Notes: a model not told the origin generated them from the sequence alone. 64,000 nt of DNA from Bdellovibrionales bacterium (GCA_040380025.1 JBEIJY010000006.1:37608-101607), one strand, 5' to 3'. Counted from the first letter of the stretch, positions 15,969 to 38,906 are shown. A program made the numbers and translations.

Positions 15969-16909
15969 GAGGTTCTCCTTTTTTTGATGAGTCCGAGCGC
16001 GTTCCGGATCGCATAGCGCATGCTTCCGGAGTCGGCCTTGTTTTTTCCTGCGATGTCGAACGCCGTTCCGTGGTCGACCGAGGTCCGCACGAACGGGAGT
16101 CCGAGAGTCATGTTCATGCTCTCGCTGAAGTTGCTGAGCTTCACGGGAATGAGCCCTTGATCGTGATAGAGCGCGAGAATCAGATGGTGCCGGGATTTCG
16201 CAGGTCGTGCCGCTTCGATCGCAAAAAACGAGTCGGCCGGATGCGGCCCGGTAAGCGTGACCGCCGGAAGCGTCTTTCCGATCGCCTGCAATGCCGGCAC
16301 GATCACCTTCGACTCCTCTTTGCCGAGGATCCCGCCCTCCCCCGCATGGGGGTTCAGCGCGAGCACCGCGATCCGAGGATTCTTCACGCCGAGCATGCCG
16401 GTCAGGAAGTCCGAAGAATTGCGGATGGCGACCTCGAGAGACTTGCGATGGATCTTCGCGCTCACCTCGGATAACGGACAATGATTGGTCACCAGCGCCA
16501 CGCGGAACAGATCGTTCGCGAGCATCATGGTCACGGGCTTTGCGCGCGAGAGATGGGCCAAAAAATCGGTGTGTCCGTGGAAGGGAAATCCGGCGCCCTG
16601 CAGGCGCTCCTTGCTGATCGGACCGGTCACGAGCACACGCGAGGCGGGTGCGGCGAGCACCATTTGCGTTGCCGTCTCGATGGACCAGCCGGACTGGTAC
16701 CCCGGGCTCGATCGTTCGGGCGGTTCGAAAAAGTCATGATCGATGCCCTTCAGATGCTTTTGGAGTTTCCGGAAGGGAGCGCGCGAACCCACGATGAGGG
16801 TGTGAACTCCCTGCAACTCGGATCGCAAGGAATCGAGCGCTTTTGCGGTGACCTCAGGGCCGATTCCCTCGGGGTCTCCCGGAGTGATGACGAGTTCGAA
16901 GGGTTTCAT
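15965..16909 (-). CDS. pdxA: 4-hydroxythreonine-4-phosphate dehydrogenase
   Basis: GDPEGIGPE, NPHAGE, YHDQG and RTSVDHGTA motifs. Confidence 0.95.
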   Translation of the reverse strand: MKPFELVITPGDPEGIGPEVTAKALDSLRSELQGVHTLIVGSRAPFRKLQKHLKGIDHDFFEPPERSSPGYQSGWSIETATQMVLAAPASRVLVTGPISKERLQGAGFPFHGHTDFLAHLSRAKPVTMMLANDLFRVALVTNHCPLSEVSAKIHRKSLEVAIRNSSDFLTGMLGVKNPRIAVLALNPHAGEGGILGKEESKVIVPALQAIGKTLPAVTLTGPHPADSFFAIEAARPAKSRHHLILALYHDQGLIPVKLSNFSESMNMTLGLPFVRTSVDHGTAFDIAGKNKADSGSMRYAIRNALGLIKKRRTS

Positions 16910-17868
16910 GGCGAGCGTTGGTTCACTTTCACGTAGTTGAGGGCGCGCTCGCGGTCGAGCCAGAGGCGGACCTGATGGCGGAACTCCCCTTCCATGAGGC
17001 GGGCGCGGATCGAATCTTTTTCGCGTTCGAAGGCCGAGTCGGTGTCGAACTTGATGTCCCCCACGCGCACGATCAGAAAGGATTTTTTGTCTTCGATGAT
17101 TTCGCTCGTTTTTTCGGGCCCGAGCCGGCGGACCTCGGCCTGGATCTCGGGGCTCATCTCGTTGTAAGCAAGGTGGCCGAGATCCCCCCCGAACTCCTGG
17201 CTCGGATCCTCACTCAGGCGTTTGGCGACCTCTTCGAACGCCTCGCCCTTTTTCAGGGCTTCGAGTGCCTGCCCGGCCTCTTCGCGGGCGGCGACGGAGG
17301 TCTTATAGTTCGCTTTCGAGATCCGGATCAAAAACAGACGGAACGAACCGCCGAAGGACTTCGAGCCCGAATGGGCGCGATTGTATTCGGCACGGAGGTC
17401 GTCATCGGAGACTGCGGTTTTGTTCCGGATCTCGCGATCGATCAGGTTCCGCTTCGCGATCGAGATTCGCATCAGTCGAAAGTACTCCTCGAACCGGAAC
17501 CCCTCCCGACCCACGGCGCTCTTCAGCGCTTCGCGATCGATCTTGAGATTGGCCTGGATGGTGTTGATCTCCTGTTCCACCTCGGCATCAGCGACCGGGA
17601 ATTTGTCGATCACCAGAGCCTCGTCGATCAGATAGTTCAGCACGTCTTCATTGGTGGGATTTGCTTTTCGTCCGATGGGCTCGTTCACAAAAAGCGGGTC
17701 GATCTTGGCACGAAGGGGAATGAGTGAGCGGAATCGTTCGAAGTCCGAGAAGAAAATAGGGCGCTTGTTCACGATCGCCTCGACCCGATCCACAAGGACG
17801 GCATCGACGGAGATCGCAAAGGCGCCCGAAAAGAGGGTCAGAAGCAACGCGGCTCGTAGGTTCATCAC
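16906..17868 (-). CDS. surA: SurA-family periplasmic chaperone/PPIase
   Basis: Signal peptide, VDRVEAIVN N-domain, one parvulin domain (SEDPS...GGDLG), located upstream of pdxA. Confidence 0.8.
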   Translation of the reverse strand: MMNLRAALLLTLFSGAFAISVDAVLVDRVEAIVNKRPIFFSDFERFRSLIPLRAKIDPLFVNEPIGRKANPTNEDVLNYLIDEALVIDKFPVADAEVEQEINTIQANLKIDREALKSAVGREGFRFEEYFRLMRISIAKRNLIDREIRNKTAVSDDDLRAEYNRAHSGSKSFGGSFRLFLIRISKANYKTSVAAREEAGQALEALKKGEAFEEVAKRLSEDPSQEFGGDLGHLAYNEMSPEIQAEVRRLGPEKTSEIIEDKKSFLIVRVGDIKFDTDSAFEREKDSIRARLMEGEFRHQVRLWLDRERALNYVKVNQRSP

Positions 17869-18756: not shown

Positions 18757-21700
18757 TTAACAGCCCGATCCGGCGTTTTCAAATGCTTTGGGCGCTATTT
18801 TTCGGAGAAGTTTTTCGAGTTCAAAAAAATGACTCTTCAGATCGACGAAGGGAATGTGGAACAGCACGCGCGACTCGGGTGTGAGGCGCACCCGCGGGTC
18901 ACGAACCGATTTCGGCCCCGCATGGAGCTTCATCACCTCATCGATTTCGACAGGTGAGGTTTTTCTGACACCCATCGAGGTGAGGGATTCGTTGACCGAG
19001 AGCGACTCGATGCCCGTCTTTCTGAGGAGGTTCTTCAGGCGGATCAGTGAGAAAAGGTTTTCGGTTTCGTGCGGAAGCTCGCCGAAGCGGTCAAGAAACT
19101 CGGCACGGAGTCCGTCGATTCTCGCGTCGGAATCGGCCATGGAAATTTTTCGATAGAGCGAAAGGCGGAGCTTCGGATCGGGAACCAGGTCGGTGCCGAT
19201 CGCGCACTCGACCGGGACGCGGATCTCGGGCTCGAAATGCCGTTCTTCGACGTCGATTTTTTTGCCCTTCAGCTCGGCGATCGCCTCTTCGAGAAGTTCC
19301 GTGAAGAGATCCAGCCCGACCGAGGCAATGTGCCCGGATTGTTCGCCGCCGAGCAGGTTCCCGCCCCCGCGAATCTCGAGGTCATGGCTTGCCACCTGGA
19401 ATCCGCTCCCGAGCTCGACGAATCGCTGGAGCACGTCGAGCCGCATTCGTGCCTCGGGGGTCAGAGCGCGTTCTTCTTCGGTCAGAAGATATGCGAAGGA
19501 CTTGCGATGGCTCCGGCCCACCCTGCCCCGGATCTGATAGAGCTGCGCGAGACCCAGGCGGTCGGCGCGGTGGATGAGGATCGTGCCCGCGTTCGGCACG
19601 TCGATCCCGGATTCGATGATCGTCGTGCAGACCAGGATGTTCGCGTGTCCTTGGTAGAACTCGATCATTTTCGATTCGATTTCGGCTTCGGACATCTGTC
19701 CGTGAGCAACGAGGATGCGCGCATGGGGCACGAGCTTCCGGATTTCTTCGGCCCGGTGGTGGATCGTCTCGACACGGTTGTATAAATAGAACACCTGGCC
19801 GCCGCGGGAGAGTTCGGTCTCGATCGCGGTCTTGACGAGCTCGGGTGAGTATCCCGATACGAAGGTCTTGATGGGTTGCCGGTTGGTGGGCGGGGTCTTG
19901 ATCACGCTGATGTCCTTCAGTCCCGAAATGGCGAGATTCAGGGTTCGCGGGATCGGCGTCGCCGTCAGGGTCAGGGTGTGGGTATCGGCCTGGAGAGCTT
20001 TGATTTTTTCTTTGTGTTCGACGCCAAAACGATGCTCTTCGTCGATGATCAGGAGCCCGAGGCGGTTCCAGCCCACATCCTTCGAAAGAAGCCGGTGGGT
20101 ACCGATCAGAATGTCGACCTTGCCGTCGCGCAGATCGCGAAGGGTCTCGGATTGCATCTTCCGGGTCTTGAACCGCGAAATCGATTCGATCCGGATCGGG
20201 AAATCCCGCATGCGCCGGCGGAAGGTCTGTTCGTGCTGGAATGCGAGGAGTGTGGTGGGAACGAGCACGGCCACCTGATACCCGCTTTGCACGGCCTGGA
20301 AGGCGGCACGCATCGCGACCTCGGTTTTTCCGAAGCCCACATCGCCGCATACGAGGCGGTCAAGGAGCTTTCCGGTTTCGAGATCCGAAAGGACATCCTG
20401 GGTGGCGCGCAACTGGCCCTCGGTCTCGGTGAATTCGAACCGGTCGCAGAACTCGAAGTACGAGTCGCTCCGCGTGTCGAATTGCGGCCCCTTCAGGAGG
20501 GCCCGTTTCGCGTGCAGTTCGATCAGATTGATGGCGAGCTTCTTGGCCGAATCCCTCGCCCGCTGCTTCGCTTTTTCGAAGAGTCCTGATCCAAGCTTAT
20601 CGAGCGGCGCCCCCTGGCCTGGGTTGATGTAGCGCTGGATCGTGTTCAGCCGGTATACCGGCAGATAAAGCTTGTCCCCGCCTGAGTACTCGATCAGCAG
20701 GTACTCGCCCGAACCGCTATTTCCCGAGGGGAGAGCCTTGAGTCCCGTATAGCGGCCCACTCCATGAAGGGCGTGGACGATCAGGTCTCCCGGAGACAGG
20801 TCGGAAGCGTTCTGAAACACCGCGGTCTCGTCCGGTTCGAACTTCGGGTGAAGCGGCGTGGATGCTTTGGAGGCACCGCCGAACACACCGAAGAACAGAC
20901 TCTCCGAGAGAATCATGTGCTTGTGGGTCAAGAACTCGATCGACTCGCCGGGATCGCCCGAAAGAAGCCGGAGGCCGGGAGCCCGCGCGAGGTCCTTCAG
21001 AAGAAACCGCAATCGATCCTGATGGCTCGTTCCCCGGGTACCGATCCAGATCTCAAACCCGTCGTCGAGCCATTCCCGAATCTCTTTTTCGCCGATCCGT
21101 CGGTTCTCGATCCGTTCGAAGGCGACCGGCACCCGGGCAGAGGCAGATTCGGTTGCCGAGCGCACCACGGCCGTCGCCCGTTTGAGCGCCCGATCAAGGC
21201 AGTCCTCTAGGCCGGGATACAGGGTTTCGGGATCCGGGGTGATCCAGTAGGGATTCGGGTATCGCTCGAGATCGGTCTTGATCTCGATTTTTTTGTCGGC
21301 AAGCGCGATCTTTTGCTGTTCGGGCTCGAAGAACACCATCCGGACGGTTTCGGGCAGGTGGTGCTCGAGTCTTCCGTCCGAGTCGTACACGAAGGGAAAC
21401 CAGGTGCGGTAATGCTCCGGAAGAAATCCGCTCCGGATGGTCTCAAAAATCGGATCGCGGATTTTGCGCGGAATTTGCCGGTGGTCGCAGTATTCCTTGA
21501 TGCGTTCGAGGGTTTCTTCGAGGCGATCCCACGGAAACAGCACCTCTTCGGCCGGCCGGATTCGGAGGTGCCCCGCACTCAGTCCGAATTTGTCCGTCAG
21601 TTGCGTGCCCGGATGAAACGTCCGGATGGTCTCGGGAACCGTATCGAAAAAACTGATCCGGAACGGACGCTCGTGGGCGGGGTCGAAGAGATCCAGGATC

Positions 21701-22203
21701 TCGCCCCGGAGTGCGAATTGTCCGGGCTCCTCGACCAGGTCGGTTTGCTGGTAGCCGGAAGCACGGAGCGTGCGGCGGAGATCCTCGCGGGACCCGGCAT
21801 CGCGGTCGACTTCGAGGAGGATTCCTCGCCTGGTATACGCGTCCGGAGGGATGGTTGGCTGGCACCACGATTCGGTCGTTGCGAGGAGGATTACCGAAGC
21901 GTTCCGTTCCGCGAGAAGAGAGAGCGCGTGAAGGCGGTCGATTCGCTGGGTGATCGAGGAGGAGATCGGTGAGTACGGGGACTGCTCCCAGGCGACCCAG
22001 CGGGCAAGCTCGATTCGGGTGCCCCGGGCGGCGTGTTCGGCCTCGATCAGGCTTTCGAGCGCCGAAGAAATGTTCTCCATCATTCCGGACTCCGGAAAGC
22101 AAAGCATTTGAATCGAACCCGGACGGGTGGATGCGTGCTTCAGGACCTCGAACGCTTGGGCAAGCGGAGAGGAGAATTTTATCTCTTCGGGGCCGGGGGC
22201 CAT
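18757..22203 (-). CDS. mfd: Transcription-repair coupling factor
   Basis: GDVGFGKTE, DEEHRFG, TATPIPRT, QIRGRVGR and the TRCF C-terminal domain. Confidence 0.97.
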   Translation of the reverse strand: MAPGPEEIKFSSPLAQAFEVLKHASTRPGSIQMLCFPESGMMENISSALESLIEAEHAARGTRIELARWVAWEQSPYSPISSSITQRIDRLHALSLLAERNASVILLATTESWCQPTIPPDAYTRRGILLEVDRDAGSREDLRRTLRASGYQQTDLVEEPGQFALRGEILDLFDPAHERPFRISFFDTVPETIRTFHPGTQLTDKFGLSAGHLRIRPAEEVLFPWDRLEETLERIKEYCDHRQIPRKIRDPIFETIRSGFLPEHYRTWFPFVYDSDGRLEHHLPETVRMVFFEPEQQKIALADKKIEIKTDLERYPNPYWITPDPETLYPGLEDCLDRALKRATAVVRSATESASARVPVAFERIENRRIGEKEIREWLDDGFEIWIGTRGTSHQDRLRFLLKDLARAPGLRLLSGDPGESIEFLTHKHMILSESLFFGVFGGASKASTPLHPKFEPDETAVFQNASDLSPGDLIVHALHGVGRYTGLKALPSGNSGSGEYLLIEYSGGDKLYLPVYRLNTIQRYINPGQGAPLDKLGSGLFEKAKQRARDSAKKLAINLIELHAKRALLKGPQFDTRSDSYFEFCDRFEFTETEGQLRATQDVLSDLETGKLLDRLVCGDVGFGKTEVAMRAAFQAVQSGYQVAVLVPTTLLAFQHEQTFRRRMRDFPIRIESISRFKTRKMQSETLRDLRDGKVDILIGTHRLLSKDVGWNRLGLLIIDEEHRFGVEHKEKIKALQADTHTLTLTATPIPRTLNLAISGLKDISVIKTPPTNRQPIKTFVSGYSPELVKTAIETELSRGGQVFYLYNRVETIHHRAEEIRKLVPHARILVAHGQMSEAEIESKMIEFYQGHANILVCTTIIESGIDVPNAGTILIHRADRLGLAQLYQIRGRVGRSHRKSFAYLLTEEERALTPEARMRLDVLQRFVELGSGFQVASHDLEIRGGGNLLGGEQSGHIASVGLDLFTELLEEAIAELKGKKIDVEERHFEPEIRVPVECAIGTDLVPDPKLRLSLYRKISMADSDARIDGLRAEFLDRFGELPHETENLFSLIRLKNLLRKTGIESLSVNESLTSMGVRKTSPVEIDEVMKLHAGPKSVRDPRVRLTPESRVLFHIPFVDLKSHFFELEKLLRKIAPKAFENAGSGC

Positions 22204-22241
22204 TGACTCACCCTTTCTTTATCAAGTACCTTCTGCAACAG

Positions 22242-22466
22242 ATGGATCGGAAACGAATTTTGCCTTTTGAGCTCAAAACAACCCAGTTCACCCAAGCGGT
22301 GAATAATCTGTGGGTTGCCTTGCTCGTGGTGCTCCCCGTGTTTGTGGGGGAGCGGGTCCGGTCCTTGCCGTATTTAATCGCGATTCTTCCGATGATGATA
22401 GTGTTTTTGTCATTCTTTCTGACCACACGGAACTCAATCAGGAAGGATGAGAATGACGGGATTTAG
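22242..22466 (+). CDS. Small two-TM protein, possibly a NuoA remnant
   Basis: Two hydrophobic segments, overlaps the start of the NuoB-like gene. The call rests on position only. Confidence 0.35.
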   Translation: MDRKRILPFELKTTQFTQAVNNLWVALLVVLPVFVGERVRSLPYLIAILPMMIVFLSFFLTTRNSIRKDENDGI

Positions 22467-22833
22467 ACCGGCCCTGAAATACGTTCGCGTGGGAGTTTCT
22501 TGCTGCGGGGATGACTGGATCCAGACCGAGTCGAGTCGCTATGATCTCGAGCGGCTCGGATGTGTTCCCGCCATTCGCCCGGAAGAAGCGAATTTGCTCG
22601 TGATTCAGGGATTCATGAATGGAATGCTCCGGGAAGAGGCCGAGCGCTTTTATCGCGAGATGCCCGAGCCCCGATTTGTCATGGCGCTCGGAACCTGCGC
22701 CTGCGGTGGCGGTTTGTTTCCGGCCGAAGGATCCGGAGCAGAGATTCCGGTCGACGTGTATGTGACAGGTTGTCCGCCCCGACCGGAAGCGATCATGAAT
22801 GGCGTGATCTCTCTTCGGGAGGTACGCAAGTGA
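22447..22833 (+). CDS. Divergent NuoB-like Fe-S subunit
   Basis: SCC, YDLERLG, GTCACGGG and VDVYVTGCPPRPE: all four N2-type Cys ligands present. Confidence 0.9.
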   Translation: MRMTGFRPALKYVRVGVSCCGDDWIQTESSRYDLERLGCVPAIRPEEANLLVIQGFMNGMLREEAERFYREMPEPRFVMALGTCACGGGLFPAEGSGAEIPVDVYVTGCPPRPEAIMNGVISLREVRK

Positions 22834-23843
22834 TTCAAGAAACGCTCGAAATGGGACCCATCCACCCGTGGTTGCCCGGACCGATGAAGGTTCGGTTGGG
22901 TATGATCGGAGATCGGATCGCGAGCATCGAGACCGGGTTCGGGTTCGCCGCACGCGAGATCGAGAAGCGGGTTTGCGGGCGCACTCTGGAGATGGCCCCC
23001 TTTCATTCCGGCCGGATCGAGCCGGAGAGCGCTTTTTTGCTCGATCGCTTGTTCGGTGAGGCGGCCGAACGGATTCTCGGAGTTCAAGTGCCCGCCCGGG
23101 CGGCTTGGATCCGCGACATTTGCTTCGAGTTGAGCGAGTTCGGAGCGCAGCTGAAGTTTCTTGCCCGCATGGCATCGCGAATGGGTCTGGGTGTTTTGTA
23201 TCATTCCATCCTGAAGCAGCGGGAGTCCCTTTTGGACCTGGTCGAGCTTTTGACCGGTTCTCGGTACGGATACAATTACATCCGTGCCGGAGGCGCACGC
23301 TATGATCTCACCGATGGGTTTCAGGAGCGCCTGGACGCGTGGATGAGAGGATTTCTGGCGGATCATGACCAGATCTACGAGCTTTTTTGCTGGACTCATC
23401 CGTTTCAGAACAGGCTGAAGTCGATGGGGTTGGTGGTCGACTCGGGTGATTTCGGGTATGTGAGTGAGGCCGCGGCCGAGAACACCCGATTCGGTCGGGT
23501 GAGCCATGTGGAATCCCGTCTTCTGCATGCCCTCGGATCATGCAAAGAGATCTGCACTGAACTCAGGATGCTTCTCGACTCGCCCGTGAAGGGCGCGTTC
23601 TTCGAGCGGGTCCCGGATGCTCCGGCCGCCGGCCGGGCTCGTGCCGAGATCGACACGATTCGCGGCTCGTGGTCGTTCGATCTCGAGCTCGATCAGAAGC
23701 AAAGAGTCGGCGCCCTGGCGGTCACCACTCCTTCGGATCGCATCCGGAACGCCATTTTGCCCGCGCTTGAGGGTGAGTCGATCGAGGATCTGCCGCTGAT
23801 CCTCGAGAGCCTTTCCCTTTCGATTCCGGAGATCGACCGATGA
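22830..23843 (+). CDS. Divergent NuoD-like subunit (no Q-site residues, no NiFe CxxC)
   Basis: MGPIHP, VQVPARAAWIR, ELLTGSR and C-terminal EIDR. GTG start after GGAGGT overlaps the NuoB-like stop. Confidence 0.85.
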   Translation: MIQETLEMGPIHPWLPGPMKVRLGMIGDRIASIETGFGFAAREIEKRVCGRTLEMAPFHSGRIEPESAFLLDRLFGEAAERILGVQVPARAAWIRDICFELSEFGAQLKFLARMASRMGLGVLYHSILKQRESLLDLVELLTGSRYGYNYIRAGGARYDLTDGFQERLDAWMRGFLADHDQIYELFCWTHPFQNRLKSMGLVVDSGDFGYVSEAAAENTRFGRVSHVESRLLHALGSCKEICTELRMLLDSPVKGAFFERVPDAPAAGRARAEIDTIRGSWSFDLELDQKQRVGALAVTTPSDRIRNAILPALEGESIEDLPLILESLSLSIPEIDR

Positions 23844-24625
23844 TGGAGTGGGTTCTGTCGGCCATTTCGATTTTTCCCTTGTCGTTTTTGATGTTCGCGC
23901 TGAGCGAGCGGATGATCGCTCGCCATGAGTCGCGGGTCGGAAAACACATCGGGATCGCCGGCTATGTCTGGCAAACCTGGATCGACACCCGGGTCGATCT
24001 GACAAGGCTTGAGGGGCGGATTTGGGCGTTGTTTTTGTTCCAGTTGTCGATCGTGTTCCTTTACGGGATCGATGCCGAATATCTGGTGTTTCCGTATCTT
24101 GCGACGAACGGATTTCTTCTGGCGATGCTTTCGCCATCCCACGGTGAAGTCCTGAAGAAAATCACGTTCGATCGCGAGCAGGTGGCCTTTTCTGCCGCAA
24201 GCGCTATGGCGGCCCTGTGTCTGCTCGGGGCGTTCACGCTTTCAGGAACCGCGAACCTGAGAGCGATCGAGTTTCATTTCGGGCATCTTTTTTTTGTGAT
24301 CCCCTTCCAGCTCGCCGGAATGATCTTGTTCGGAGAACATCCCTTCGCGGGGTTTCTCGAAAAGCGCACTTGGATCGAATCCGCGCGGTTTTACGCATGG
24401 AGCATGGTGACCGCTCGGGTATTCCTCGGGGGCGGCTCGGTTTTTTTTGATTTTCATCTGAAGGCGGCCGTCCTGTATCTCGCCTTTCGTCTGCTCGGGG
24501 CGTATTTTCCGGCATTCCGCCAGAAGGATTTTCTCAGAATCGTGGTTCTGTACGGGTTTCCGCTGACGGGAATTCTCTGGTTGGTGGTCATGATGGTGAA
24601 CGCCTGGTTCAACGGAGGGGTTTAG
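23840..24625 (+). CDS. Divergent, shortened NuoH-like membrane subunit
   Basis: SERMIARHESRVG...G..Q...D N-terminus and FPAFR C-terminus echo NuoH; 261 aa. Confidence 0.7.
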   Translation: MMEWVLSAISIFPLSFLMFALSERMIARHESRVGKHIGIAGYVWQTWIDTRVDLTRLEGRIWALFLFQLSIVFLYGIDAEYLVFPYLATNGFLLAMLSPSHGEVLKKITFDREQVAFSAASAMAALCLLGAFTLSGTANLRAIEFHFGHLFFVIPFQLAGMILFGEHPFAGFLEKRTWIESARFYAWSMVTARVFLGGGSVFFDFHLKAAVLYLAFRLLGAYFPAFRQKDFLRIVVLYGFPLTGILWLVVMMVNAWFNGGV

Positions 24626-24626
24626 A

Positions 24627-25019
24627 GTGATGAAACGCGTGATCGGGCATTTTTTGAATCACGATGGGGCCAGAAAGGTAGACACCGAGTTTTACCCCGA
24701 TCCGGTTTCTTCGCGGAGCAAGGATGATTTTCCGGCCCGGGCGCGGGGTCTGGTCTTCAACGAGATCGAAAAATGCACCGCCTGTGGCGACTGCCAGAAA
24801 GTCTGTCCCACCGCTTGCATCACGGTTGAGTCCGTGGAGCGGGAGCGGAACAACCGTCCTTGGGTGTCGAAGTTCGACATTGATTTCTCGAACTGTGTTT
24901 TTTGCGGATTTTGCGTCGAAGTGTGCGAGCCGAATTCGTTGGTGCAGACCAAGGAAGTCCAGGCGGCCGTGTTCGATGCCCGGGACCTGATCACGGATTT
25001 CGGAAGGGGGCCCCTGTGA
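24627..25019 (+). CDS. NuoI-like 2x[4Fe-4S] subunit
   Basis: YP...RARG, CTACGDCQKVCP, FDIDFSNCVFCGFCVEVC. Confidence 0.9.
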   Translation: MMKRVIGHFLNHDGARKVDTEFYPDPVSSRSKDDFPARARGLVFNEIEKCTACGDCQKVCPTACITVESVERERNNRPWVSKFDIDFSNCVFCGFCVEVCEPNSLVQTKEVQAAVFDARDLITDFGRGPL

Positions 25020-25369
25020 CCGCTGTCTTCGATTTGTTGCTTCTGGCGGGAGTCTCGGTTTGTTTCTCGATCCGGAATCTGTATCAAGGTATGGTGATTT
25101 TCTCGCTCGGGCTGGTGTTCCTGTTTCAGGCCCGGCGATCCCGTCTCCTGACCGGATGGTCTCCCGCGCCCCTGCCTCTCGGCCGGAGAATCCGGGCGGC
25201 CGTGTGCGCGGTCCTGCTCGCAGGAGGGGCTGCCCCCCTTTTGACCGAATCGGTAGTGCCCGGGGTGGATGCGCCGACGGAGGATTTGCTGTTTCCGGTC
25301 GTGGTATCGGTGATCCTGTTGTCCGGTATGCTTTTGCTCGGACTCGGGGTGGAGAGGCGGAAACGATGA
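25016..25369 (+). CDS. Degenerate NuoJ-like membrane protein
   Basis: Hydrophobic, GTGA-coupled to the NuoI-like gene, C-terminal LLFPVVVSVILLSG. Mainly a positional call. Confidence 0.5.
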   Translation: MTAVFDLLLLAGVSVCFSIRNLYQGMVIFSLGLVFLFQARRSRLLTGWSPAPLPLGRRIRAAVCAVLLAGGAAPLLTESVVPGVDAPTEDLLFPVVVSVILLSGMLLLGLGVERRKR

Positions 25370-25605
25370 TCCACGCGGGCTTGGTTTTGTTCGCATTCTC
25401 GCTCTATCTTGCCTTCCTTAGCGAAGATGCGATCGAGTTCGGAGTCGCTCTCTTGCGGGTAGCGTTCACGGTTTTGCTTCTGGTGTTTTTCTCTTTGGAA
25501 GATCAAGCCGTGCTGGAGGGGGCGGTGTTGGCGTATTCCATTCTTGTTTTGGCGTTTCTGGCGTTGATCCGGAATGAAGTTCAGGTGGACCATGATCCAT
25601 CTTGA
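25366..25605 (+). CDS. Degenerate NuoK-like three-TM protein
   Basis: 79 aa, three hydrophobic helices, ATGA-coupled. Positional call. Confidence 0.5.
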   Translation: MIHAGLVLFAFSLYLAFLSEDAIEFGVALLRVAFTVLLLVFFSLEDQAVLEGAVLAYSILVLAFLALIRNEVQVDHDPS

Positions 25606-26446
25606 GCTCACCCGCTTCGACCAGACGGCGGTTCTTCTGATTCTGGTGAGTGCTCTTGCGCTGATCCGGGAGCGACGGGTTCTTCCGTTCGGAATGGTTC
25701 TTCTCGGTGCCCTGGTTCAGGGCCAGATTGTGATGATTCTGCTGGCTGCCCTGACCGCTTGGCACCGCCTTGATCGCGCGGCGTCGCGGTGGATTCAGCT
25801 CAAGGATCTTGCGGGGGTTTTTTTGGTCATGGCCGCGTCGATGTCAGCCGATGCGCTGCAGGCCTTTTTTCTGCTGACCGGCGTGTTCCTGATCACCGTG
25901 AATCTCGGAGGCGGAATGCTAGGCCCCTTGCCGGCGCTTCTTTTGCTTCGTCAGGCTCACCCGAACCCTGAGTTTTTCGAGGTTGTTCTCGGGGCGGGCG
26001 CCTCGTACTGGTTGGTTGCCGAGATTTTGCGTTTCACGAAGTCCAAGCACGAGGGACAGATTCTGGCCTGGCTCGAGGCGCTTAGTGCGATCGCGATTCT
26101 TGCAAGCTTTCGTGGTGAGGCCGAGAGAATCGCGGATGAGCCCCTCTATCTCGGAATCGTGTGCGCGGGTGTCGCATTGGTTCTTTCTCTGGCATTCTGG
26201 AAGCGAATTCGAACCCTCGGGTTTTGGTCTTTCCGGATTTCAGGTCGGATTGCTGTAGCGAATGGTTTGCTCGCGGGAAGGGCTTGGGTATCGGGGGCAG
26301 ATCGTCTGACTTCGGATCAGCCCTTGGCGCAGGACCCGGATTTTCGCGTTGCGATCGATTCACTGATTTATTGGGTTTTCGGAATTGTCTTGTTTTTCGG
26401 CTTGCTGATTCTGCTGTCCGGAGGAGGATTCATCCATGATCTTTGA
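25592..26446 (+). CDS. Truncated NuoL-position membrane protein
   Basis: 284 aa polytopic protein after an AGGTGG SD. Only a faint echo of NuoL (QLKDLAG vs RIGDLG). Confidence 0.45.
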   Translation: MIHLELTRFDQTAVLLILVSALALIRERRVLPFGMVLLGALVQGQIVMILLAALTAWHRLDRAASRWIQLKDLAGVFLVMAASMSADALQAFFLLTGVFLITVNLGGGMLGPLPALLLLRQAHPNPEFFEVVLGAGASYWLVAEILRFTKSKHEGQILAWLEALSAIAILASFRGEAERIADEPLYLGIVCAGVALVLSLAFWKRIRTLGFWSFRISGRIAVANGLLAGRAWVSGADRLTSDQPLAQDPDFRVAIDSLIYWVFGIVLFFGLLILLSGGGFIHDL

Positions 26447-27428
26447 GTGGAGCATTCCCGGTCTGGCAGTGGCGGCGTCTTGGGCGCTCAGTGTTTCGGA
26501 TGCAGCCGTGGTTCAAGCGGCTCTTGGATTCCTCGTCTTCAGCTCGACCTCGGTTTCGGCGAGTCTTCTGCTCCTCCTTGCGATTCAGATTCTTGCGTTC
26601 ATCCGGCTCTGCACGGGCACAAGGCGCGAACGGCAGACCATCGCCTTGCGTTGGTTCTCGCTCGTGCTTTTCGGGATGTTTCTCGCTCTTTTTGGTTCGG
26701 CGGTCGGTGACAATTCTGAAGGCCGAGGCATGCTCATCGCCGGGCTTCTTTTGATGGTGCCCAATGGGGTGACGGCGTTCTTTTTCGGCGACTTTTTGGA
26801 GCGTCAGACGCTGAAGTCCTATTTGGGATCGGTTCTGATCCCCGCTTTTGTCGCGATCGACATTCTTTTGAAGATCAAGGGCCAGGCAAAAAGCGATTTC
26901 GGTCAGGTGTTTGAATGGGGGCTGATGATCCTCGGGGGCTCGACCCTGATCTTTTCGAGTCTGCTTGCATTCTTGCGCCTGGGAATCCGCGCGGTGCTGA
27001 TTCATTGGTCGCAAGCGTGGATCGGCCTTGCGCTTTTTTTGCTACCGTTTGATTTCGAATCGATTTCGCCCGTCGCGATCCCTGCGATCGCCATTTTTGC
27101 GGTGAGCTCGGTCTCCTTGCTCGGTCTTGCGGCACAGCTCGGGCAACGACCGTTTGCGTTTGCGCGGGCCGCGGCATTCGGATTGCCCGGTTTGATCGGA
27201 TTCGTCGCGATCGATGCGGCGATTCGGATTCCCCTCTCGGCCGATCCGTGGTTTGCGGTTCCTGTGTTCGCGGGACAGCTCTTGTTGATCATGACCATGC
27301 TTTCCTGCAAGACCTGGCCGGTTTCCTCGCCCGATCGACGAATCTGGGTTCGGTTTTGGACGATCACAGCGGTCCAGATTGCCGCGGGGTGCGCTCTCTA
27401 CTGGCTTGCGCAGGGAGGAGTCCGATGA
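26436..27428 (+). CDS. Degenerate NuoM-like antiporter-type subunit
   Basis: LIHWSQAWIG aligns with LAYSSISHLG, and FGLPGLIGF with SLPGTMNF; 330 aa. Confidence 0.6.
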   Translation: MIFEWSIPGLAVAASWALSVSDAAVVQAALGFLVFSSTSVSASLLLLLAIQILAFIRLCTGTRRERQTIALRWFSLVLFGMFLALFGSAVGDNSEGRGMLIAGLLLMVPNGVTAFFFGDFLERQTLKSYLGSVLIPAFVAIDILLKIKGQAKSDFGQVFEWGLMILGGSTLIFSSLLAFLRLGIRAVLIHWSQAWIGLALFLLPFDFESISPVAIPAIAIFAVSSVSLLGLAAQLGQRPFAFARAAAFGLPGLIGFVAIDAAIRIPLSADPWFAVPVFAGQLLLIMTMLSCKTWPVSSPDRRIWVRFWTITAVQIAAGCALYWLAQGGVR

Positions 27429-28786
27429 TCCTGATGCATTTTTTTCCGGAACTGCTGATCTCGCTCTGTCTTCTCGGTTCGCTGATCCTGCTGAGCCTTA
27501 GGGTGTTGAGCCAGGGACAGCTCCCTGTGGCGGTTTCGGCGGTGTCGCTCGCCGGGCTTGTCTACTTCGGTTCTCGAGCCGATCTTGAGTTTTTCGAATC
27601 GGTTATTCCGATGCTTCGTTCGGATTCTCTCTCTTATTTCGGGCGGCTCTTGTCACTTTTGATGGTGTCGGTCTTTGCTCCGGGGGCGTACTTCCACCCC
27701 GGGCTTCGTGTCAGGGACAAGCATCAGGCGACTCTGTTTTTGCTCTTTCTTTCTCTGTTCACGAACGCCTTGTTCTTGAGTCAGAGTCTTGTTTTGTTTT
27801 TGGGGGCCGCCGTTGGAATCCATTATTGCGCCTTGCATTTGATCCGGATCGAGTCCGGGGGAGCCAGCGCCTGGACGCGTGTCTTTCGTGTGAAGTCGGT
27901 GACCACGGGAGTGTGGCTCTGTTTGGGCTTGGTCGCTTTTTTGGTATCGGCTCATCTGTTCGGCGGAGTGTTTTTTGATTCCTGGATCGAAGGGATTCGG
28001 AGTGGACAGGGGGATTGGAGCCGGGTGGTGTTCCTCGGGCTTTTGATTCTGATGGGAATGCTTCCGCTGGTCGGAATGCGGTCGATCGGAAAGGCGCCCT
28101 ATTCGCTCGGGATTTTTTCGTTCGGAACCTTTTTGATTCTTGGAGTCTTTTGGTTTCGGATCGGAGTGCCCTCGCTCCAAGCGAGCGAGGCACTGCCCGT
28201 GCCCACCGCGCGGTGGATGCTTTCTTTGCTCTTTGGAGCGATCGCCCTACGGTCCGTTGTGTCTGCATTCAGGACCCGCGACCCTGATTCCTGGATCTCG
28301 GCGGTCTTTCCGGTTCTGGTCGGACTGGGGCTTTTCACAGTTCTCCTTCCTTCTGATCAGTCGCTCCCCGCGTTCCAGCGGGTGGCTCTTGCGGCTCTTC
28401 TGACGATCTCTTTGGTTTCGCGGGTGTTTTTGGATCCAGGATTCCGCCTGAAGTGGATGGCCGTGTTTTCGTTGTTCGCCGTATTCGGAGCGCCTCCGCT
28501 TTTTTTGGGGGAACAGTGGTTCAAAATGACGAGAGAGCTGATTCGGGCAGGAGATGTCATCCCGGGCATCATGGCCATGGTGCTCTGGTTCGGTCTTGCG
28601 GTCGCGACAATTCAAATCATTGGCAAGGTTCTTCAGGGGCGGATTTCGAAGGACCAAATCCGAAAACCTGATTCGGGAGAACTGTTTTTCTTGATCGTGT
28701 ATCTGCTCGGGACGGCCGCACTCATGCTGTTCCAGGGGCCCTTGATTTCTCTTTTAAATCAGCATCCTCTCGCGAATTTGTGGTAA
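27425..28786 (+). CDS. Degenerate NuoN-like antiporter-type subunit
   Basis: N-terminal PELL, DSLSYF, FGAPP; about 453 aa; ATGA-coupled. Confidence 0.7.
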   Translation: MILMHFFPELLISLCLLGSLILLSLRVLSQGQLPVAVSAVSLAGLVYFGSRADLEFFESVIPMLRSDSLSYFGRLLSLLMVSVFAPGAYFHPGLRVRDKHQATLFLLFLSLFTNALFLSQSLVLFLGAAVGIHYCALHLIRIESGGASAWTRVFRVKSVTTGVWLCLGLVAFLVSAHLFGGVFFDSWIEGIRSGQGDWSRVVFLGLLILMGMLPLVGMRSIGKAPYSLGIFSFGTFLILGVFWFRIGVPSLQASEALPVPTARWMLSLLFGAIALRSVVSAFRTRDPDSWISAVFPVLVGLGLFTVLLPSDQSLPAFQRVALAALLTISLVSRVFLDPGFRLKWMAVFSLFAVFGAPPLFLGEQWFKMTRELIRAGDVIPGIMAMVLWFGLAVATIQIIGKVLQGRISKDQIRKPDSGELFFLIVYLLGTAALMLFQGPLISLLNQHPLANLW

Positions 28787-28819
28787 GGTTCCCCTAAGCA
28801 ATTCAGAAAGGAAAAGCAT

Positions 28820-29182
28820 ATGGAATACCTTCCCGTGCTGGTCATGATGGCTGCGGGGGTGTGCATCGGCGGCGCAGTCCTGATCCTGACCACCTGGCTT
28901 GGCCCGAAGCTGCCCAACAAAACAAAAGACCAACCCGCAGAGTGCGGGATTCCGGTAAACGAGATGGCGCGAAAGCAACGCGTGTCCATTCGCTTTTATC
29001 TCGTGGCGATCCTTTTTTTGCTCTTCGACGTTGAGACGGTGTTCTTTTATCCGTGGGCCGTCGCGTATCGAAAGTTCCTCGAAGGAGGAGCCTTCATTCT
29101 GTTCGAGATGCTGGCCTTCGTGCTGGTTCTTCTGGTCGGTTATATTTATGTGCTCCGCAAAGGGGCGCTGGAATGGGAGTAA
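28820..29182 (+). CDS. nuoA: NADH-quinone oxidoreductase subunit A
   Basis: ECG, FYLVAILFLLFDVE and KGALEWE motifs. Confidence 0.96.
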   Translation: MEYLPVLVMMAAGVCIGGAVLILTTWLGPKLPNKTKDQPAECGIPVNEMARKQRVSIRFYLVAILFLLFDVETVFFYPWAVAYRKFLEGGAFILFEMLAFVLVLLVGYIYVLRKGALEWE

Positions 29183-29185
29183 GAC

Positions 29186-29689
29186 ATGGGCAAGGACGGA
29201 TCCTCTGATTTTTTTACGACCCGTTTTGAGGACGTGGTGAATTGGGCCCGAAAAAACTCCCTCTTCCCCCTTCCCTTCGGGACAAGCTGTTGCGGAATCG
29301 AGCTGATGTCGACACTGGCCTCGGGCTACGACATGGCCCGCTTCGGTGCCGAGGTGGTGCGGTTTTCGCCGCGGCAGAGCGATCTTTTGATCGTCGCCGG
29401 GATCGTGAACCTCAAGATGGCGCCGGTTCTCCGGAACATTTATGACCAGATGGCCGATCCGAAGTGGGTGATCTCGATGGGCGCATGCGCCTCCTCGGGC
29501 GGAATCTTCAACGTATATAGCGTCACCCAAGGGATCGACACGGTGGTGCCGGTCGATGTGTATGTGCCCGGGTGTCCGCCCGCTCCCGAAGGGCTCCTGA
29601 ATGCGCTTTTGCGCCTCGAAGAACGAATCGCAAACGGCGAGACCCATTCCCAGCGCCGGATCCGCGCCCAGAAAGAAGGCCGCCCATGA
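29186..29689 (+). CDS. nuoB: NADH-quinone oxidoreductase subunit B
   Basis: [21 protein letters not shown] and PGCPP motifs. Confidence 0.97.
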
Positions 29690-30246
29690 ACGTCCAGACT
29701 CCGGTCAAAACCATTTACGGGAACTGGGGCGAGAAGTTCGCATCCCAATGGAGCGGGTTCGTCGAGCATCTTCAGACCGCCCATGCGAAGTCGCTCGAAG
29801 AGATTCACCTCCCCGCGACCCATATGGTCGACATTCCCACCGCATACGTTTCGAAAGAAGGCATGCAAGAGGTGCTTCGCTCGCTGAAGGAGGCGCTCGG
29901 GTTCTCGTTTCTGACCGATTATACGGCATCGGACGAAGGCGGAGAAAAGCGCTTTCAGCTCATTCTGCATCTGATGAGCCCGCAGACGAAGGCAAGGGTT
30001 CGGATTAAAATCCGCATCGCGGAATCCGAGACGGTTCCGACCCTGATTCCTCTTTGGGAAGGGGCGAATTGGGCCGAGCGCGAGATCTTCGACATGTTCG
30101 GAATCCGCTTTGAGGGGCACCCTGATCTTCGTCGCATCCTGATGGATGTGCGCTGGGAAGGTCATCCTCTCCGAAAAGACTACCCGCTTCGCGGGTATCA
30201 GGTGTTTCTTACTCCCGAACCTCTCGATCCGGAGCTGTTCAAATGA
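29686..30246 (+). CDS. nuoC: NADH-quinone oxidoreductase subunit C
   Basis: [20 protein letters not shown] and GHPLRKDYP motifs. Confidence 0.96.
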
Positions 30247-31523
30247 AAACCGAAAACTCAAAAGGCCTGCAAACCGACCTTCCGCTCGATGTCGCCCGCT
30301 GGGGCGTTCCGGCCACCTTCGATGTGACGCTAAAGCGCGACAGCGATGATGTGTTTGAGGACTCGCGCGTGCTTGTGAACATCGGTCCGACACACCCGGC
30401 GATGCACGGAGCCTTCCGGTGCATGGCCAAGCTGAACGGCGAGACCATCGAGAAGTCCTTTTGCGAGTTCGGGTACACCCATCGCGCCAAAGAAAAACTG
30501 GGCGAGAATCGCACTTATCACCAGTTCGTGGTCTACACCGATCGCCTGAACTACTGCTCGGCCTTGATCAACAACGTCACCTACGCCATGTCTGTCGAGC
30601 GCCTGATGGGAATTGAGGTCCCCGAGCGCGCGGTATGGATTCGCATGATGTGCGCCGAGCTTGCGCGCGTGATCGACCATCTGATTTGCGTCGGGATCAG
30701 CGCCGTCGACCTGGGTGCGTTTTCGTACTTTCTGTACGGCTACCACCAGCGCGAGCGGGCCTACACGCTCATCGAAAAACTCTGTGGCGCACGCCTGACC
30801 ACCTCGTACACCCGCATCGGCGGCCTCATGGCCGATGCTCCCGAGGGCTGGGAGCGCGAGCTGAAGGAATGGGTGAAAGAGACCCGCGAAGTCGTGAACG
30901 AGATGGACCGTCTCCTGACCGAGAACCGAATCTGGCTCAAGCGGACCAAGGGCGTGTCGATCTTCAATAAAGAGGACTGCCTTCGATACAGCTTCACGGG
31001 TCCGAACGCCCGCGCTGCCGGTGTCGACATCGATCTTCGTCGCGATCAGCCGTGCATGTTCTACGATCGGGTCGATTTTGATGTGCCGGTCGCCCAGAAC
31101 GGCGACGTGTTCGACCGGTATTATGTGCGGCTCGAAGAGATCCGCCAGAGCTTGAACATTCTGACCCAATGCGCAGACCGGATCAAAAAGGGGCCGATCT
31201 GGTCTGAAGACAAGCGCACGCGGATTCCCGATAAAGAGGTGGTTTACAACACGATGGAAGGCCTGATCCATCACTTCAAATTCTTCATGACCGGGTTCAA
31301 CGTTCCTGCCGGTGAGGCGTACACGCCCTTCGAAGCCGCAAATGGTGAGCTCGGGTTTTACATCATGAGCCGCGGAGGGCCCATGGCCCATCGGATGCGG
31401 ATCCGCGGGCCTTCGTTCTGGCACTATCAGGGGCTGGATCCGATGGTGAAGGGCGGATTCATCGCAGACCTCGTGGCCGCCCTCGGCAGCATCAATGTCA
31501 TTGCAGGGGAGCTCGATCGATAA
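30243..31523 (+). CDS. nuoD: NADH-quinone oxidoreductase subunit D
   Basis: GPTHPAMHG, GYTHR, DRLNY and C-terminal GELDR. Confidence 0.97.
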   Translation: MKTENSKGLQTDLPLDVARWGVPATFDVTLKRDSDDVFEDSRVLVNIGPTHPAMHGAFRCMAKLNGETIEKSFCEFGYTHRAKEKLGENRTYHQFVVYTDRLNYCSALINNVTYAMSVERLMGIEVPERAVWIRMMCAELARVIDHLICVGISAVDLGAFSYFLYGYHQRERAYTLIEKLCGARLTTSYTRIGGLMADAPEGWERELKEWVKETREVVNEMDRLLTENRIWLKRTKGVSIFNKEDCLRYSFTGPNARAAGVDIDLRRDQPCMFYDRVDFDVPVAQNGDVFDRYYVRLEEIRQSLNILTQCADRIKKGPIWSEDKRTRIPDKEVVYNTMEGLIHHFKFFMTGFNVPAGEAYTPFEAANGELGFYIMSRGGPMAHRMRIRGPSFWHYQGLDPMVKGGFIADLVAALGSINVIAGELDR

Positions 31524-32005
31524 TGGAAAAGCATCTTTCTGACCGGTTCTACGGAGCCATGAGCAAGCTCGAGCCACGGTATCCGAATAAAAAGGCGCTC
31601 ATTCTTCCCGCGCTTCATCAGGCGCAAAAAGAATACGGCTGGCTTCCCAAAGAGGTGCTTGCCGAGGTTGCCGAGTACATCGGAGTCCATGAAGCGCAGA
31701 TTCGCGAGGTCGCGAGCTTTTACACCATGTACAACCTGAAGCCCGTGGGCAAAACCCATTTGAAGCTTTGCACGAACGTGGCCTGCTGTCTTCGCGGCGC
31801 TGACGATTTGATGGAGTACGCCGAAAAGAAGCTCGGCGTGAAATGTGGCGAGACGACTCCGGACGGACTGTTCACGCTCTCCGAAGAAGAATGCCTCGGG
31901 GCCTGCACGACGGCTCCGGTGATGATGGCGAATGACGAGTATGTCGAGAACCTCGACATCCGGGCCTTGAACGAGCTCATTGAGAAGGTGAAGCATGAGC
32001 GCTGA
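31523..32005 (+). CDS. nuoE: NADH-quinone oxidoreductase subunit E
   Basis: CTNVAC...ECLGAC [2Fe-2S] motif. Confidence 0.96.
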   Translation: MEKHLSDRFYGAMSKLEPRYPNKKALILPALHQAQKEYGWLPKEVLAEVAEYIGVHEAQIREVASFYTMYNLKPVGKTHLKLCTNVACCLRGADDLMEYAEKKLGVKCGETTPDGLFTLSEEECLGACTTAPVMMANDEYVENLDIRALNELIEKVKHER

Positions 32006-33275
32006 AACGCAAACCCTGTTTGTCCAGCATTTCTGGAACGATTCCAACCGCACGCTCGATTACTACGTGAAGCGCATGAACGGCTATGAGTCGGCAAAAA
32101 AAGTCATTGCGACCATGACGCCGGACCAGGTCATCGAGGAAGTGAAGAAAGCGAACATCCGCGGACGCGGGGGCGCGGGGTTCCCGATGGGAATGAAGTG
32201 GGGCTTCATTCCAAAGAACTCCGAGAAGCCCAAATACCTCGTGTGCAACGCCGATGAATCCGAGCCGGGAACCTGCAAGGACCGGCAGATCATCCGCTAT
32301 ACGCCGCATTTGCTGATCGAGGGTCTCATCATCGGCTCGTACGCGATCGGGTGCCATCATTCGTATGTGTACATCCGCGGCGAGTATGTGCGTGAGGCGG
32401 AGCTCTTGAATGCGGCGATCGAAGAAGCCTACAAAAACGGCTATCTCGGCAAAAACGTGTTCGGTTCGGGCTTTGATCTCGACATCACCGTGCATCGGGG
32501 TGCCGGCGCTTACATTTGCGGCGAAGAGACGGGCCTTCTGAACTCGCTCGAAGGAAAGCGCGGCGAGCCCCGCGTGAAGCCGCCGTTCCCGGCCGTTTCG
32601 GGTGCGTTTTCGTGTCCGACGGCGGTGAACAACGTCGAGTCGATCGCGAATGTTCCGCACATCATCCGCCTGGGCGGCGAGGAGTTCGCGAAGCTCGGAA
32701 AAATCGACAAGTCCGGCGGAACCCGCCTCATCTCGCTCTCGGGGCACGTGAACAAGCCCGGAGTGTATGAGGCGCTCGCCGGTTCGATGACCGTGCGCCA
32801 GATCATCGAGGATTTCGGCGGCGGCGTCTGGAAGGGCAAGCGCCTGAAGGCCGTGATCCCGGGCGGCTCATCGTCGCCCGTGCTCACCGCGGACGAGATC
32901 GACGTGGTCTACGATGTCGAACCCCTGATGAAGATCGGCACGATGATGGGCTCTGCCGCCGTCATGGTCATCGACGAAGACACCGACATGGTGAAGCTCC
33001 TGCTCCGGATCACGAAATTCTACGCGCATGAGTCGTGCGGGCAGTGCACGCCCTGCCGCGAGGGTTGCCACTGGATGGAGTCGATTCTTCATAAGATTTT
33101 GCACGGGGAGGCGAAGCCTTCGGACATCGACCTGTTGGTCGATGTGGCCGGGAACATCGGAGGAAAAACCTTGTGCGCGCTCGGAGATGCGGCCGCGATG
33201 CCGGTCCAGAGCTTCGTGAAGAAGTTCCGGAGCGAGTTCGAGGCGTATGTGAAGGGACAAAAGAGCCATGCCTAA
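31995..33275 (+). CDS. nuoF: NADH-quinone oxidoreductase subunit F
   Basis: GRGGAGF, NADESEPG, GAYICGEE and SCGQCTPCREG motifs. Confidence 0.97.
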   Translation: MSAETQTLFVQHFWNDSNRTLDYYVKRMNGYESAKKVIATMTPDQVIEEVKKANIRGRGGAGFPMGMKWGFIPKNSEKPKYLVCNADESEPGTCKDRQIIRYTPHLLIEGLIIGSYAIGCHHSYVYIRGEYVREAELLNAAIEEAYKNGYLGKNVFGSGFDLDITVHRGAGAYICGEETGLLNSLEGKRGEPRVKPPFPAVSGAFSCPTAVNNVESIANVPHIIRLGGEEFAKLGKIDKSGGTRLISLSGHVNKPGVYEALAGSMTVRQIIEDFGGGVWKGKRLKAVIPGGSSSPVLTADEIDVVYDVEPLMKIGTMMGSAAVMVIDEDTDMVKLLLRITKFYAHESCGQCTPCREGCHWMESILHKILHGEAKPSDIDLLVDVAGNIGGKTLCALGDAAAMPVQSFVKKFRSEFEAYVKGQKSHA

Positions 33276-35768: not shown

Positions 35769-35769
35769 C

Positions 35770-37060: not shown

Positions 37061-37063
37061 GCG

Positions 37064-38906
<1,843 letters not shown>

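Follow-up and report, generated by a model that had tools for sequence, protein, structure and literature searches.

A probable reduced complex I paralog lies in tandem with the canonical nuoA-N operon of a Bdellovibrionales bacterium

A ten-gene cluster in nuo order precedes a complete nuoA-N operon

We analyzed a 64,000-nt stretch of DNA from a Bdellovibrionales bacterium (GCA_040380025.1, JBEIJY010000006.1:37608-101607), hereafter the window, in which ten genes arranged in the order of the nuo genes for respiratory complex I lie directly upstream of a complete nuoA-N operon. An initial annotation, made from the sequence of the window, had described these genes as an eroded duplicate of complex I, tightly coupled and ending 33 bp before nuoA. 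The layout held up in our analysis and is repeated in relatives of this bacterium. Ten open reading frames (ORFs) on the + strand fill positions 22242-28786 (all positions are those of the whole window). We name them A' to N' after the nuo slot that each one occupies:

22242-22466, + strand: A', 74 aa, small two-helix membrane protein in the NuoA slot, by position only
22447-22833, + strand: B', 128 aa, NuoB-like (PF01058, E 5.8e-20)
22830-23843, + strand: D', 337 aa, NuoD-like (PF00346, E 5.4e-16)
23840-24625, + strand: H', 261 aa, remote shortened NuoH homologue, by profile-profile comparison only
24627-25019, + strand: I', 130 aa, NuoI-like (TIGR01971, E 3.3e-21)
25016-25369, + strand: J', 117 aa, membrane protein in the NuoJ slot, by position only
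25366-25605, + strand: K', 79 aa, membrane protein in the NuoK slot, by position only
25574-26446, + strand: L', 290 aa (284 from the ATG at 25592), NuoL slot, weak fold match
26436-27428, + strand: M', 330 aa, remote NuoM homologue, about the C-terminal two thirds kept
27425-28786, + strand: N', 453 aa, remote full-length NuoN homologue
28787-28819, + strand: 33-nt spacer to the canonical nuoA
28820-41847, + strand: canonical nuoA-N operon, 14 genes (ORFs and E, F and G domains)

Neighboring genes of the cluster share GTGA at 22830 and 25016 and ATGA at 23840, 25366 and 27425. The remaining junctions are overlaps of 20 nt (A'/B'), 32 nt (K'/L') and 11 nt (L'/M') and a 1-nt gap between H' and I'. 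A purine-rich, Shine-Dalgarno-like stretch precedes most of the cluster starts, and another purine-rich stretch lies in the spacer ahead of the nuoA ATG at 28820. No terminator-like site was found in the spacer, and no sigma-70-like promoter anywhere in the scanned interval, 21800-29400. Given the 33-nt gap, the lack of a terminator-like site and the 4-nt overlaps, the cluster is probably co-transcribed with nuoA-N.

No homologue of C, E, F or G was found inside the cluster, as first described, and B' and D' overlap by 4 nt with no gene between them. NuoE, NuoF and NuoG are present only in the adjacent canonical operon, and the single NuoC of the genome (one PF00329 match) is the canonical copy. 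The canonical proteins have the sizes first described (L 618 aa, M 493 aa, and H 382 aa from the first start or 363 aa from the next methionine). Its D subunit keeps the motifs HPAMHG and NRTYH, and its K, L, M and N subunits keep the reference glutamates and lysines.

Six subunits are homologues of Nuo proteins and four are recognized by position or weak fold similarity

Pfam and NCBIfam recognize three of the ten cluster proteins, namely B', D' and I', and give no match for the seven membrane proteins (A', H', J', K', L', M' and N'); automatic annotation therefore leaves 7/10 of these proteins without a Pfam or NCBIfam family. The NuoB model PRK06411 scores B' at 113 bits with a cut-off of 116, and the PF00346 match is confined to the first 200 residues of D'. 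When aligned by hhalign to the canonical subunits of the window, B' (99.7%), D' (98.4%, residues 6-337, the full length) and I' (98.5%) all matched. In these sequence comparisons B', D' and I' are clear homologues of NuoB, NuoD and NuoI.

The same procedure applied to the seven membrane-subunit profiles against single canonical sequences gave nothing significant, and profiles of N', M', L' and H' (10-11 orthologues each) had no match at E≤1 among all PDB sequences. Some of these proteins are connected to complex I through an intermediate, a full-size 11-gene paralog found in other genera and described below, for which we use the working name Nuo2. A hidden Markov model (HMM) of H' matches 5/5 Nuo2-H sequences (E 1.6e-10 to 4e-3 in a database of 223 ORFs), and hhalign connects H' to NuoH via Nuo2 profiles (97.7%, E 1.4e-12, residues 7-254 versus 36-354). 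Likewise, the M' HMM matches Nuo2-M at E 1.9e-7 and the M' profile aligns via Nuo2 to NuoM (96.3%, E 1.7e-9, M' 82-322 versus Nuo2-M 220-493), while N' aligns via Nuo2 to NuoN over nearly its whole length (97.3%, E 2.7e-11, residues 3-447 versus 8-486). H', M' and N' are thus remote homologues of NuoH, NuoM and NuoN, visible only by profile-profile comparison.

The other four proteins (A', J', K' and L') gave no significant hhalign match to Nuo2 profiles built from 5 and then from 40-50 sequences. The L' profile, searched against 1.84 billion representative proteins, returned 25 matches, all from its own family. An AlphaFold2 model of L' has a mean predicted local distance difference test (pLDDT) score of 79.9 and a predicted template modeling (pTM) score of 0.67. 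Foldseek found nothing for this model in the PDB at E≤1e-3. In a comparison with 48,161 PDB representatives (VIA), antiporter-like subunits took the top 11 rows and 23 of the top 25 (NdhF, ND5, Nqo12, MrpD and NuoN, from complex I, NDH-1, Mrp, MBH, MBS or FHL), with Z between 6.5 and 8.9 and core alignments of about 155 residues at 3.1-3.7 Å. Since for helical proteins a Z under about 13 counts as weak, the model is only suggestive of a truncated antiporter-like subunit. The AlphaFold2 model of J', with four helices (pLDDT 66.9, pTM 0.42), is too uncertain for a structure search, and the ESM Atlas look-alikes of J' and K' all score below 0.9 and include no Nuo cluster. The initial subunit labels therefore stand for B', D' and I', are upheld as remote relationships for H', M' and N', and reduce to a weak fold match for L' and to position for A', J' and K'.

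The cluster derives from a full-size paralog, Nuo2, of the same order

The survey of Bdellovibrionota that the initial annotation had called for places the reduced cluster in one genus and in further genera of its family. All ten genes are open, in the same order and before nuoA in eight same-genus contigs that span the whole cluster, and the part present in two contigs that end early (L018 and L020) is also open. N' is open in 12/16 same-genus genomes and was found in 0/24 genomes searched from other genera of the order; at least 13 proteins match it in a collection of 5.8 billion. A search with D' across 401 genomes of the phylum found strong orthologues only in the genus and weaker matches, over the full length or half of it, in 36 further genomes of that order, with nothing at E≤1e-30 in other orders. 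For two genomes (G008 and G015) only the canonical NuoI was found.

In all five loci fetched from other genera, a complete A-B-C-D-H-I-J-K-L-M-N cluster, Nuo2, lies directly upstream of the canonical nuoA-N on the same strand. In one Nuo2, nine proteins (B, C, D, H, I, J, K, M and N) receive Nuo names from NCBIfam; M exceeds its cut-off and D falls just short of it, A has a weak match only and L none. Nuo2 proteins are of full size (J 165-190, K 95-105, L 630-655, M about 500 and N about 490 aa). Each of the three recognizable cluster proteins scores higher against Nuo2 than against the canonical subunits: D' 175-196 versus 90-115 bits, I' 137-174 versus 53 bits and B' 113-138 versus 92-96 bits. 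In addition, a family-specific insertion in subunit I, YPDPVSS(R/K)..DD, is common to the reduced form and Nuo2.

We then scanned genomes with the subunit I motif, taking one genome per species and keeping 80 of 105 relatives. Among these 80 are 71 Bdellovibrionota loci (labeled Bdellovibrionales, Oligoflexia, Bacteriovoracaceae and others). The other nine are from Actinomycetota (L098-L106); they match at 30-32% identity and were taken as ordinary NuoI. Twelve of the 71 Bdellovibrionota loci are reduced, with about 2.15-2.37 kb from B to I and 4.19-4.73 kb from I to nuoA, and none of these 12 has a NuoC match. The remaining 59 are full size (5.8-6.75 kb from I to nuoA). The canonical nuoA follows in 53/71 loci, and the other 18 end before its expected position. 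Five full-size loci (L070, L084, L091, L094 and L097) have a shorter distance from B to I (2.65-2.79 kb) and no match to two NuoC queries, which may reflect independent loss or strong divergence of C. On the contig of another full-size locus (L025, G321:C3), the canonical nuoB, nuoD and nuoF at 13631-17755 are each split over two overlapping matches that lie in different frames. These apparent frameshifts may be errors of assembly; the Nuo2 genes of this contig are intact. One full Nuo2 holder, FG-1 (L058), has been placed in GTDB class UBA1018 (PMC13200544).

A quick maximum-likelihood tree of subunit D (62 rows, with the canonical sequences thinned from 44 to 11, one misclassified row dropped and no outside groups) groups the reduced sequences into one clade (Shimodaira-Hasegawa-like approximate likelihood ratio test, SH-aLRT, 99) and the canonical sequences into another (100), with far longer branches in the reduced clade. 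Short forms of I' were also found in two further genera of the same family. In a genome of one of these genera (G018, locus L113, G018:C13:401500-413500), positions 1852-8914 hold ten open genes without C that encode 129, 136, 330, about 270-302, 135, 153, 97, 414, 353 and 389 aa, with only 27% identity in D. Because the short I' is shared by two further genera and G018 has its own ten-gene, C-less version, the reduction is an old event at the level of the family, with later variation. Within the genus, an intermediate variant (G006, L020/L035) has J of about 150 aa, K of 80-98 aa depending on the start, and L, M and N of 466, 336 and 421 aa; in hhalign comparisons, its A, J, K and L group with the reduced family and provide no bridge to Nuo2.

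These comparisons indicate that, in the family of the window, a Nuo2-type ancestor was stripped of NuoC and of about 3 kb of coding DNA, chiefly for the membrane arm. The cluster as a whole is thus very probably a reduced complex I paralog from the Nuo2 lineage. The initial idea of an old complex I duplicate is right as to age and paralogy; the source is not the adjacent operon copied directly but an 11-subunit lineage present in many genera of the order, of which the cluster is the reduced end.

Quinone-ligand and pump residues were lost before the subunits shrank

The initial annotation had characterized the cluster as catalytically eroded and had proposed a non-pumping iron-sulfur (Fe-S) membrane scaffold. 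In the alignments the Fe-S ligands are intact, and the known residues for quinone binding and pumping are gone. D' retains the NuoD fold over its entire length, and 26 columns are invariant (alignment A5); it carries two internal deletions of about 28 and 27 residues. The canonical motifs GPTHPAMHG and NRTYH contain His38 and Tyr87, which we take to be the quinone ligands. In the motif survey they correspond to GPIHPWLPGPM and GRTLEM in D'. The loop histidine is replaced by proline in both Nuo2 and D'; at the position of the tyrosine, full Nuo2 has tryptophan and the reduced D' proteins have a variable residue.

In the membrane arm we examined the glutamates and lysines of transmembrane helices (TM) 5, 7, 8 and 12 presumed to serve in pumping, as well as those of NuoK, counting the residues of full Nuo2 at the columns of the canonical residues (N n=40, L n=41, M n=45, K n=45). 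NuoN has glutamine in place of the TM5 Glu in 22/40 sequences and in place of the TM7 Lys in 22/40, and it retains the TM12 Lys in 32/40, so that neutralization in the parent Nuo2 is not total. In NuoM, the TM5 Glu has become Gly, Ala or Ser (34/45), the TM7 Lys is Arg (42/45), the TM8 Lys is Pro (39/45) and the TM12 Glu is His (19/45). The TM5 Glu of NuoL is replaced by an aliphatic residue (Leu, Ile or Val) in 27/41 and its TM7 Lys by Gln in 26/41, and in NuoK the TM2 and TM3 Glu are Gln in 31/45 and 23/45, respectively. In the reduced cluster, the aligned positions of N' and M' lack the TM5/7/8/12 charges (hhalign alignments), and the TM7 stretch PFH.W.PD is deleted from N'. The pump columns of L' could not be aligned to canonical NuoL. 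Taken together, the alignments place the loss of catalytic and pump residues in the full-size Nuo2 ancestor, before shrinkage.

Fe-S ligands are retained and the genes are under purifying selection

The four cysteine ligands of cluster N2 in B', in the motifs CC, GTCACGGG and GCPP, are kept in 10/10 reduced sequences, 5/5 Nuo2 sequences and the canonical sequence. I' has two complete CxxCxxCxxxC motifs, whose eight cysteines are invariant in all reduced, full-size and canonical sequences examined. G018, from another genus of the family, also retains all 12 Fe-S cysteines of B and I.

I' and B' are the slowest-evolving subunits of the cluster. Within the genus, identity to the window is highest for I' (65-78%), followed by B' (61-72%), D' (40-57%), H' (32-57%) and the three subunits L', M' and N' (15-44%); canonical NuoB is 85-93% identical. 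A' is conserved in nine relatives at 34-67%. Purifying selection is strongest on the Fe-S subunits.

It extends to every gene of the cluster. In the closest species pair, the ratio of nonsynonymous to synonymous substitution rates (dN/dS, omega) is 0.00-0.06 for all ten genes, with synonymous divergence (dS) of 0.11 for A' and 0.54-0.97 for the other nine. The canonical nuoA and nuoB give 0.00 and 0.01 in the same comparison. For the three positional subunits, close pairs give 0.00-0.02 (A'), 0.05-0.07 (J') and 0.03-0.04 (K'). No internal stop or frameshift was found in any genome examined, the 4-nt overlaps are conserved among relatives, and the genes keep their order in three genera of the family. 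The initial argument against simple pseudogene decay is supported, omega being nowhere near 1: the cluster is kept by strong purifying selection and is not a decaying pseudogene.

Genes surrounding the cluster and the canonical operon

On the opposite strand, a 1148-aa ORF (18757-22203, - strand) begins 38 nt from the start of A' (gap 22204-22241). Upstream of Nuo2 in other loci, + strand ORFs with an antisense appearance suggest that this neighbor is present there too. Within the canonical operon, NuoG (33268-34680) is short at 470 aa, with N-terminal 2Fe-2S and 4Fe-4S domains followed by molybdopterin-like domain fragments; PF00384 covers residues 419-459 only, and relatives match this NuoG at 65-80% identity. 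Directly after nuoN are genes for a 941-aa tetratricopeptide repeat protein (41854-44679) and a 463-aa protein that weakly matches subtilase (S8) (44732-46123).

A possible non-pumping electron-transfer module beside complex I

We propose, with a probability of roughly 40%, that the cluster encodes an Fe-S electron-transfer module that is anchored in the membrane, does not pump and is co-expressed with complex I. In this proposal B', D' and I' would form a head resembling the Q-module, with three [4Fe-4S] clusters equivalent to N6a, N6b and N2. With such a head in place, electrons could still travel through it, passing from I' via B' to a remodeled D'/H' pocket without the usual quinone-ligating His and Tyr, where they would exit. 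H' would dock the head on the membrane, and A', J', K', L', M' and N' would be a vestigial anchor with no ion movement, since the protonatable Glu and Lys of the antiporter-like and NuoK subunits are gone. Judged by these residues, the complex is likely to be non-pumping, whatever else it does. It would be made with canonical complex I and would work beside it as a non-electrogenic electron path. Candidate donors are the neighboring NuoEFG module or a soluble low-potential carrier; as the cluster stands in invariable tandem with an operon that carries NuoEFG, the shared NADH module is a reasonable candidate. A bolder version, which we regard as doubtful, takes the Nuo2 changes as a natural counterpart of the classic Glu to Gln and Lys to Gln 'dead pump' mutations and has the ten-subunit particle as a working partner of canonical complex I and the first natural uncoupled or minimal complex I; such a particle might borrow NuoC and/or NuoEFG as a non-pumping, NADH-oxidizing isoform, or might regulate the pump.

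Several points weigh against the electron-transfer proposal. The cluster encodes no donor or acceptor, and no donor candidate was found nearby. NuoC is a core Q-module subunit, and with the canonical copy as the only one in the genome the head may not assemble by itself. The labels of A', J' and K' are positional, with no homology detectable by hhalign or profiles. The residues on which loss of function is judged take their roles from complex I at large and were placed by motif in alignments, not on a solved structure; moreover, the TM12 Lys of NuoN persists in most full Nuo2, and the D subunit of G018 lacks even the GP.H loop motif. The cluster is dispensable, because a same-genus genome (G005, L114, G005:C1:91000-103500) has, on a continuous contig with nuoA at 10751, no related + strand gene in the 10.7 kb upstream, the syntenic site. 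No RNA run is among the sequencing runs listed for this stretch. Finally, conserved Fe-S ligands do not prove electron flow, as such ligands can persist for folding alone.

This last point leads to the strongest alternative, a pseudo-enzyme without electron flux that partners canonical complex I in structure, assembly or regulation, for instance as a docking platform or as a sink for NuoC or NuoEFG, with its Fe-S clusters kept for folding only. The tandem with nuoA-N, present wherever a locus extends far enough, the terminator-free 33-nt spacer, the lack of a NuoC beyond the canonical one, the loss of quinone-ligand and pump residues and the dispensability in G005 are all consistent with such a role. 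However, the strongest constraint falls on the two Fe-S subunits, with all 12 cysteine ligands kept over very deep divergence, and a pure scaffold has no obvious need for a ten-subunit particle held at such low omega. We consider this alternative unlikely on balance.

A conventional activity as a ferredoxin:quinone oxidoreductase, like that of other 11-subunit enzymes and fed by 2-oxoacid:ferredoxin oxidoreductases, would fit the 11-subunit architecture of the parent Nuo2, which lacks NuoEFG. Moreover, korAB has been reported in the genome of FG-1 (PMC13200544); the text examined there makes no mention of nuo. But the POR_N domain (PF01855) was not found in the genome of the window, which is 98% complete; it exceeds the cut-off in only 25/116 genomes of the order, and the Nuo2 holders G024 and G321 are not among the matches. 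Ferredoxin reduced by 2-oxoacid oxidoreductases is for these reasons unlikely as a general donor, and with the quinone-ligand residues missing as well, we find this activity improbable.

We give still less credit to an energy-converting ion pump that works through a different set of residues. N' does have invariant charges of its own (E9, R51, D67, H91, K99, E143 and R245), H' keeps E23, R24, H29, R32, E166, R183 and K208, and the retained TM12 Lys of Nuo2 NuoN points the same way. Yet the canonical Glu and Lys of K, L, M and N are systematically replaced, L' and M' are cut to 290 and 330 aa, and the membrane subunits evolve fastest, at the 15-44% identity within the genus noted above. Least credible is a decaying relic without function, which the progressive shrinkage, the long branches and the complete loss in G005 might suggest, but which the low omega at dS up to 0.97, the intact frames, the conserved 4-nt overlaps and the gene order kept across three genera all disfavor.

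Comparison with known complex I-like systems

In the parts of the full-text literature available to us, which did not extend to supplementary figure S2 of PMC4758237 (Nuo clusters of delta-proteobacteria), no description was found of the ten-gene cluster or of the charge-neutralized Nuo2, in keeping with the initial annotation, which knew of none. As far as the accessible text goes, other nuo arrangements are described in cultured Bdellovibrionota (PMC13147790), and the only one mentioned in PMC4758237 is a split Bdellovibrio operon.

This single order offers a graded natural series consisting of the normal enzyme, a full-size paralog with neutralized charges and replaced quinone ligands, and a minimal ten-subunit version without NuoC, all three kept by selection. 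How quinone chemistry drives proton pumping about 200 Å away in complex I is still debated, and the coupling has been studied largely through engineered Glu to Gln and Lys to Ala mutants and truncated membrane arms. Provided that the proteins assemble, the series would reveal what in the complex I scaffold is required for functions other than pumping and would provide small natural constructs for structural work.

Set against characterized complexes, the cluster lacks NuoC, NuoEFG, the quinone ligands and the pump residues, and it has no Ni-Fe cysteines. A [NiFe] group 4 hydrogenase was ruled out: alignment A5 of D' has no invariant cysteine and no Ni-Fe cysteine motifs, whether as N- or C-terminal pairs, and the C-terminus is E.DR without Cys. 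Ehr (energy-converting hydrogenase related) complexes, which Marreiros and colleagues reportedly described in 2013, are said to be relatives of complex I and group 4 hydrogenases with a large subunit without catalytic ligands. The cluster resembles them in its own large subunit, which likewise lacks catalytic ligands. Ehr clusters are not known to follow the nuoA-N gene order, and their large subunit is described as grouping with group 4 hydrogenases and not with NuoD. For D' and Nuo2-D the best NCBIfam models are those of NuoD, and the cluster order is strictly nuo-like (a comparison by description, gene order and family models).

The 11-subunit complex I-like enzymes (Desulfitobacterium hafniense, cyanobacterial NDH-1 and Fpo) share with the cluster the absence of NuoEFG and the combination of a Q-module with a membrane arm. 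These enzymes generally keep NuoC, the pump residues and a site for quinone or phenazine, in operons of their own, whereas the cluster has ten genes with C missing; its parent Nuo2 has all eleven.

With canonical complex I, the cluster has in common the gene order of the subunits present in both, homology in B, D, I, H, M and N, and the same 12 Fe-S cysteines in B and I. It differs in lacking NuoC, E, F and G, in a D' without equivalents of the quinone-ligand His and Tyr and without two segments, and in the absence of TM5/7/8/12 charges from N' and M'. It is also shorter in L (290 versus 618 aa), M (330 versus 493 aa) and H (261 versus 363-382 aa), as well as in J', K' and A', and it evolves several-fold faster.

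Nuo2 is the closest relative. It occupies the same position and orientation before nuoA, its subunits are the nearest to B', D' and I', it shares the YPDPVSS insertion and the His to Pro replacement in D, and it had already lost most of the pump charges. Unlike the cluster, Nuo2 keeps NuoC, full-length A, H, J, K, L, M and N, and a tryptophan at the position of the canonical tyrosine of D.

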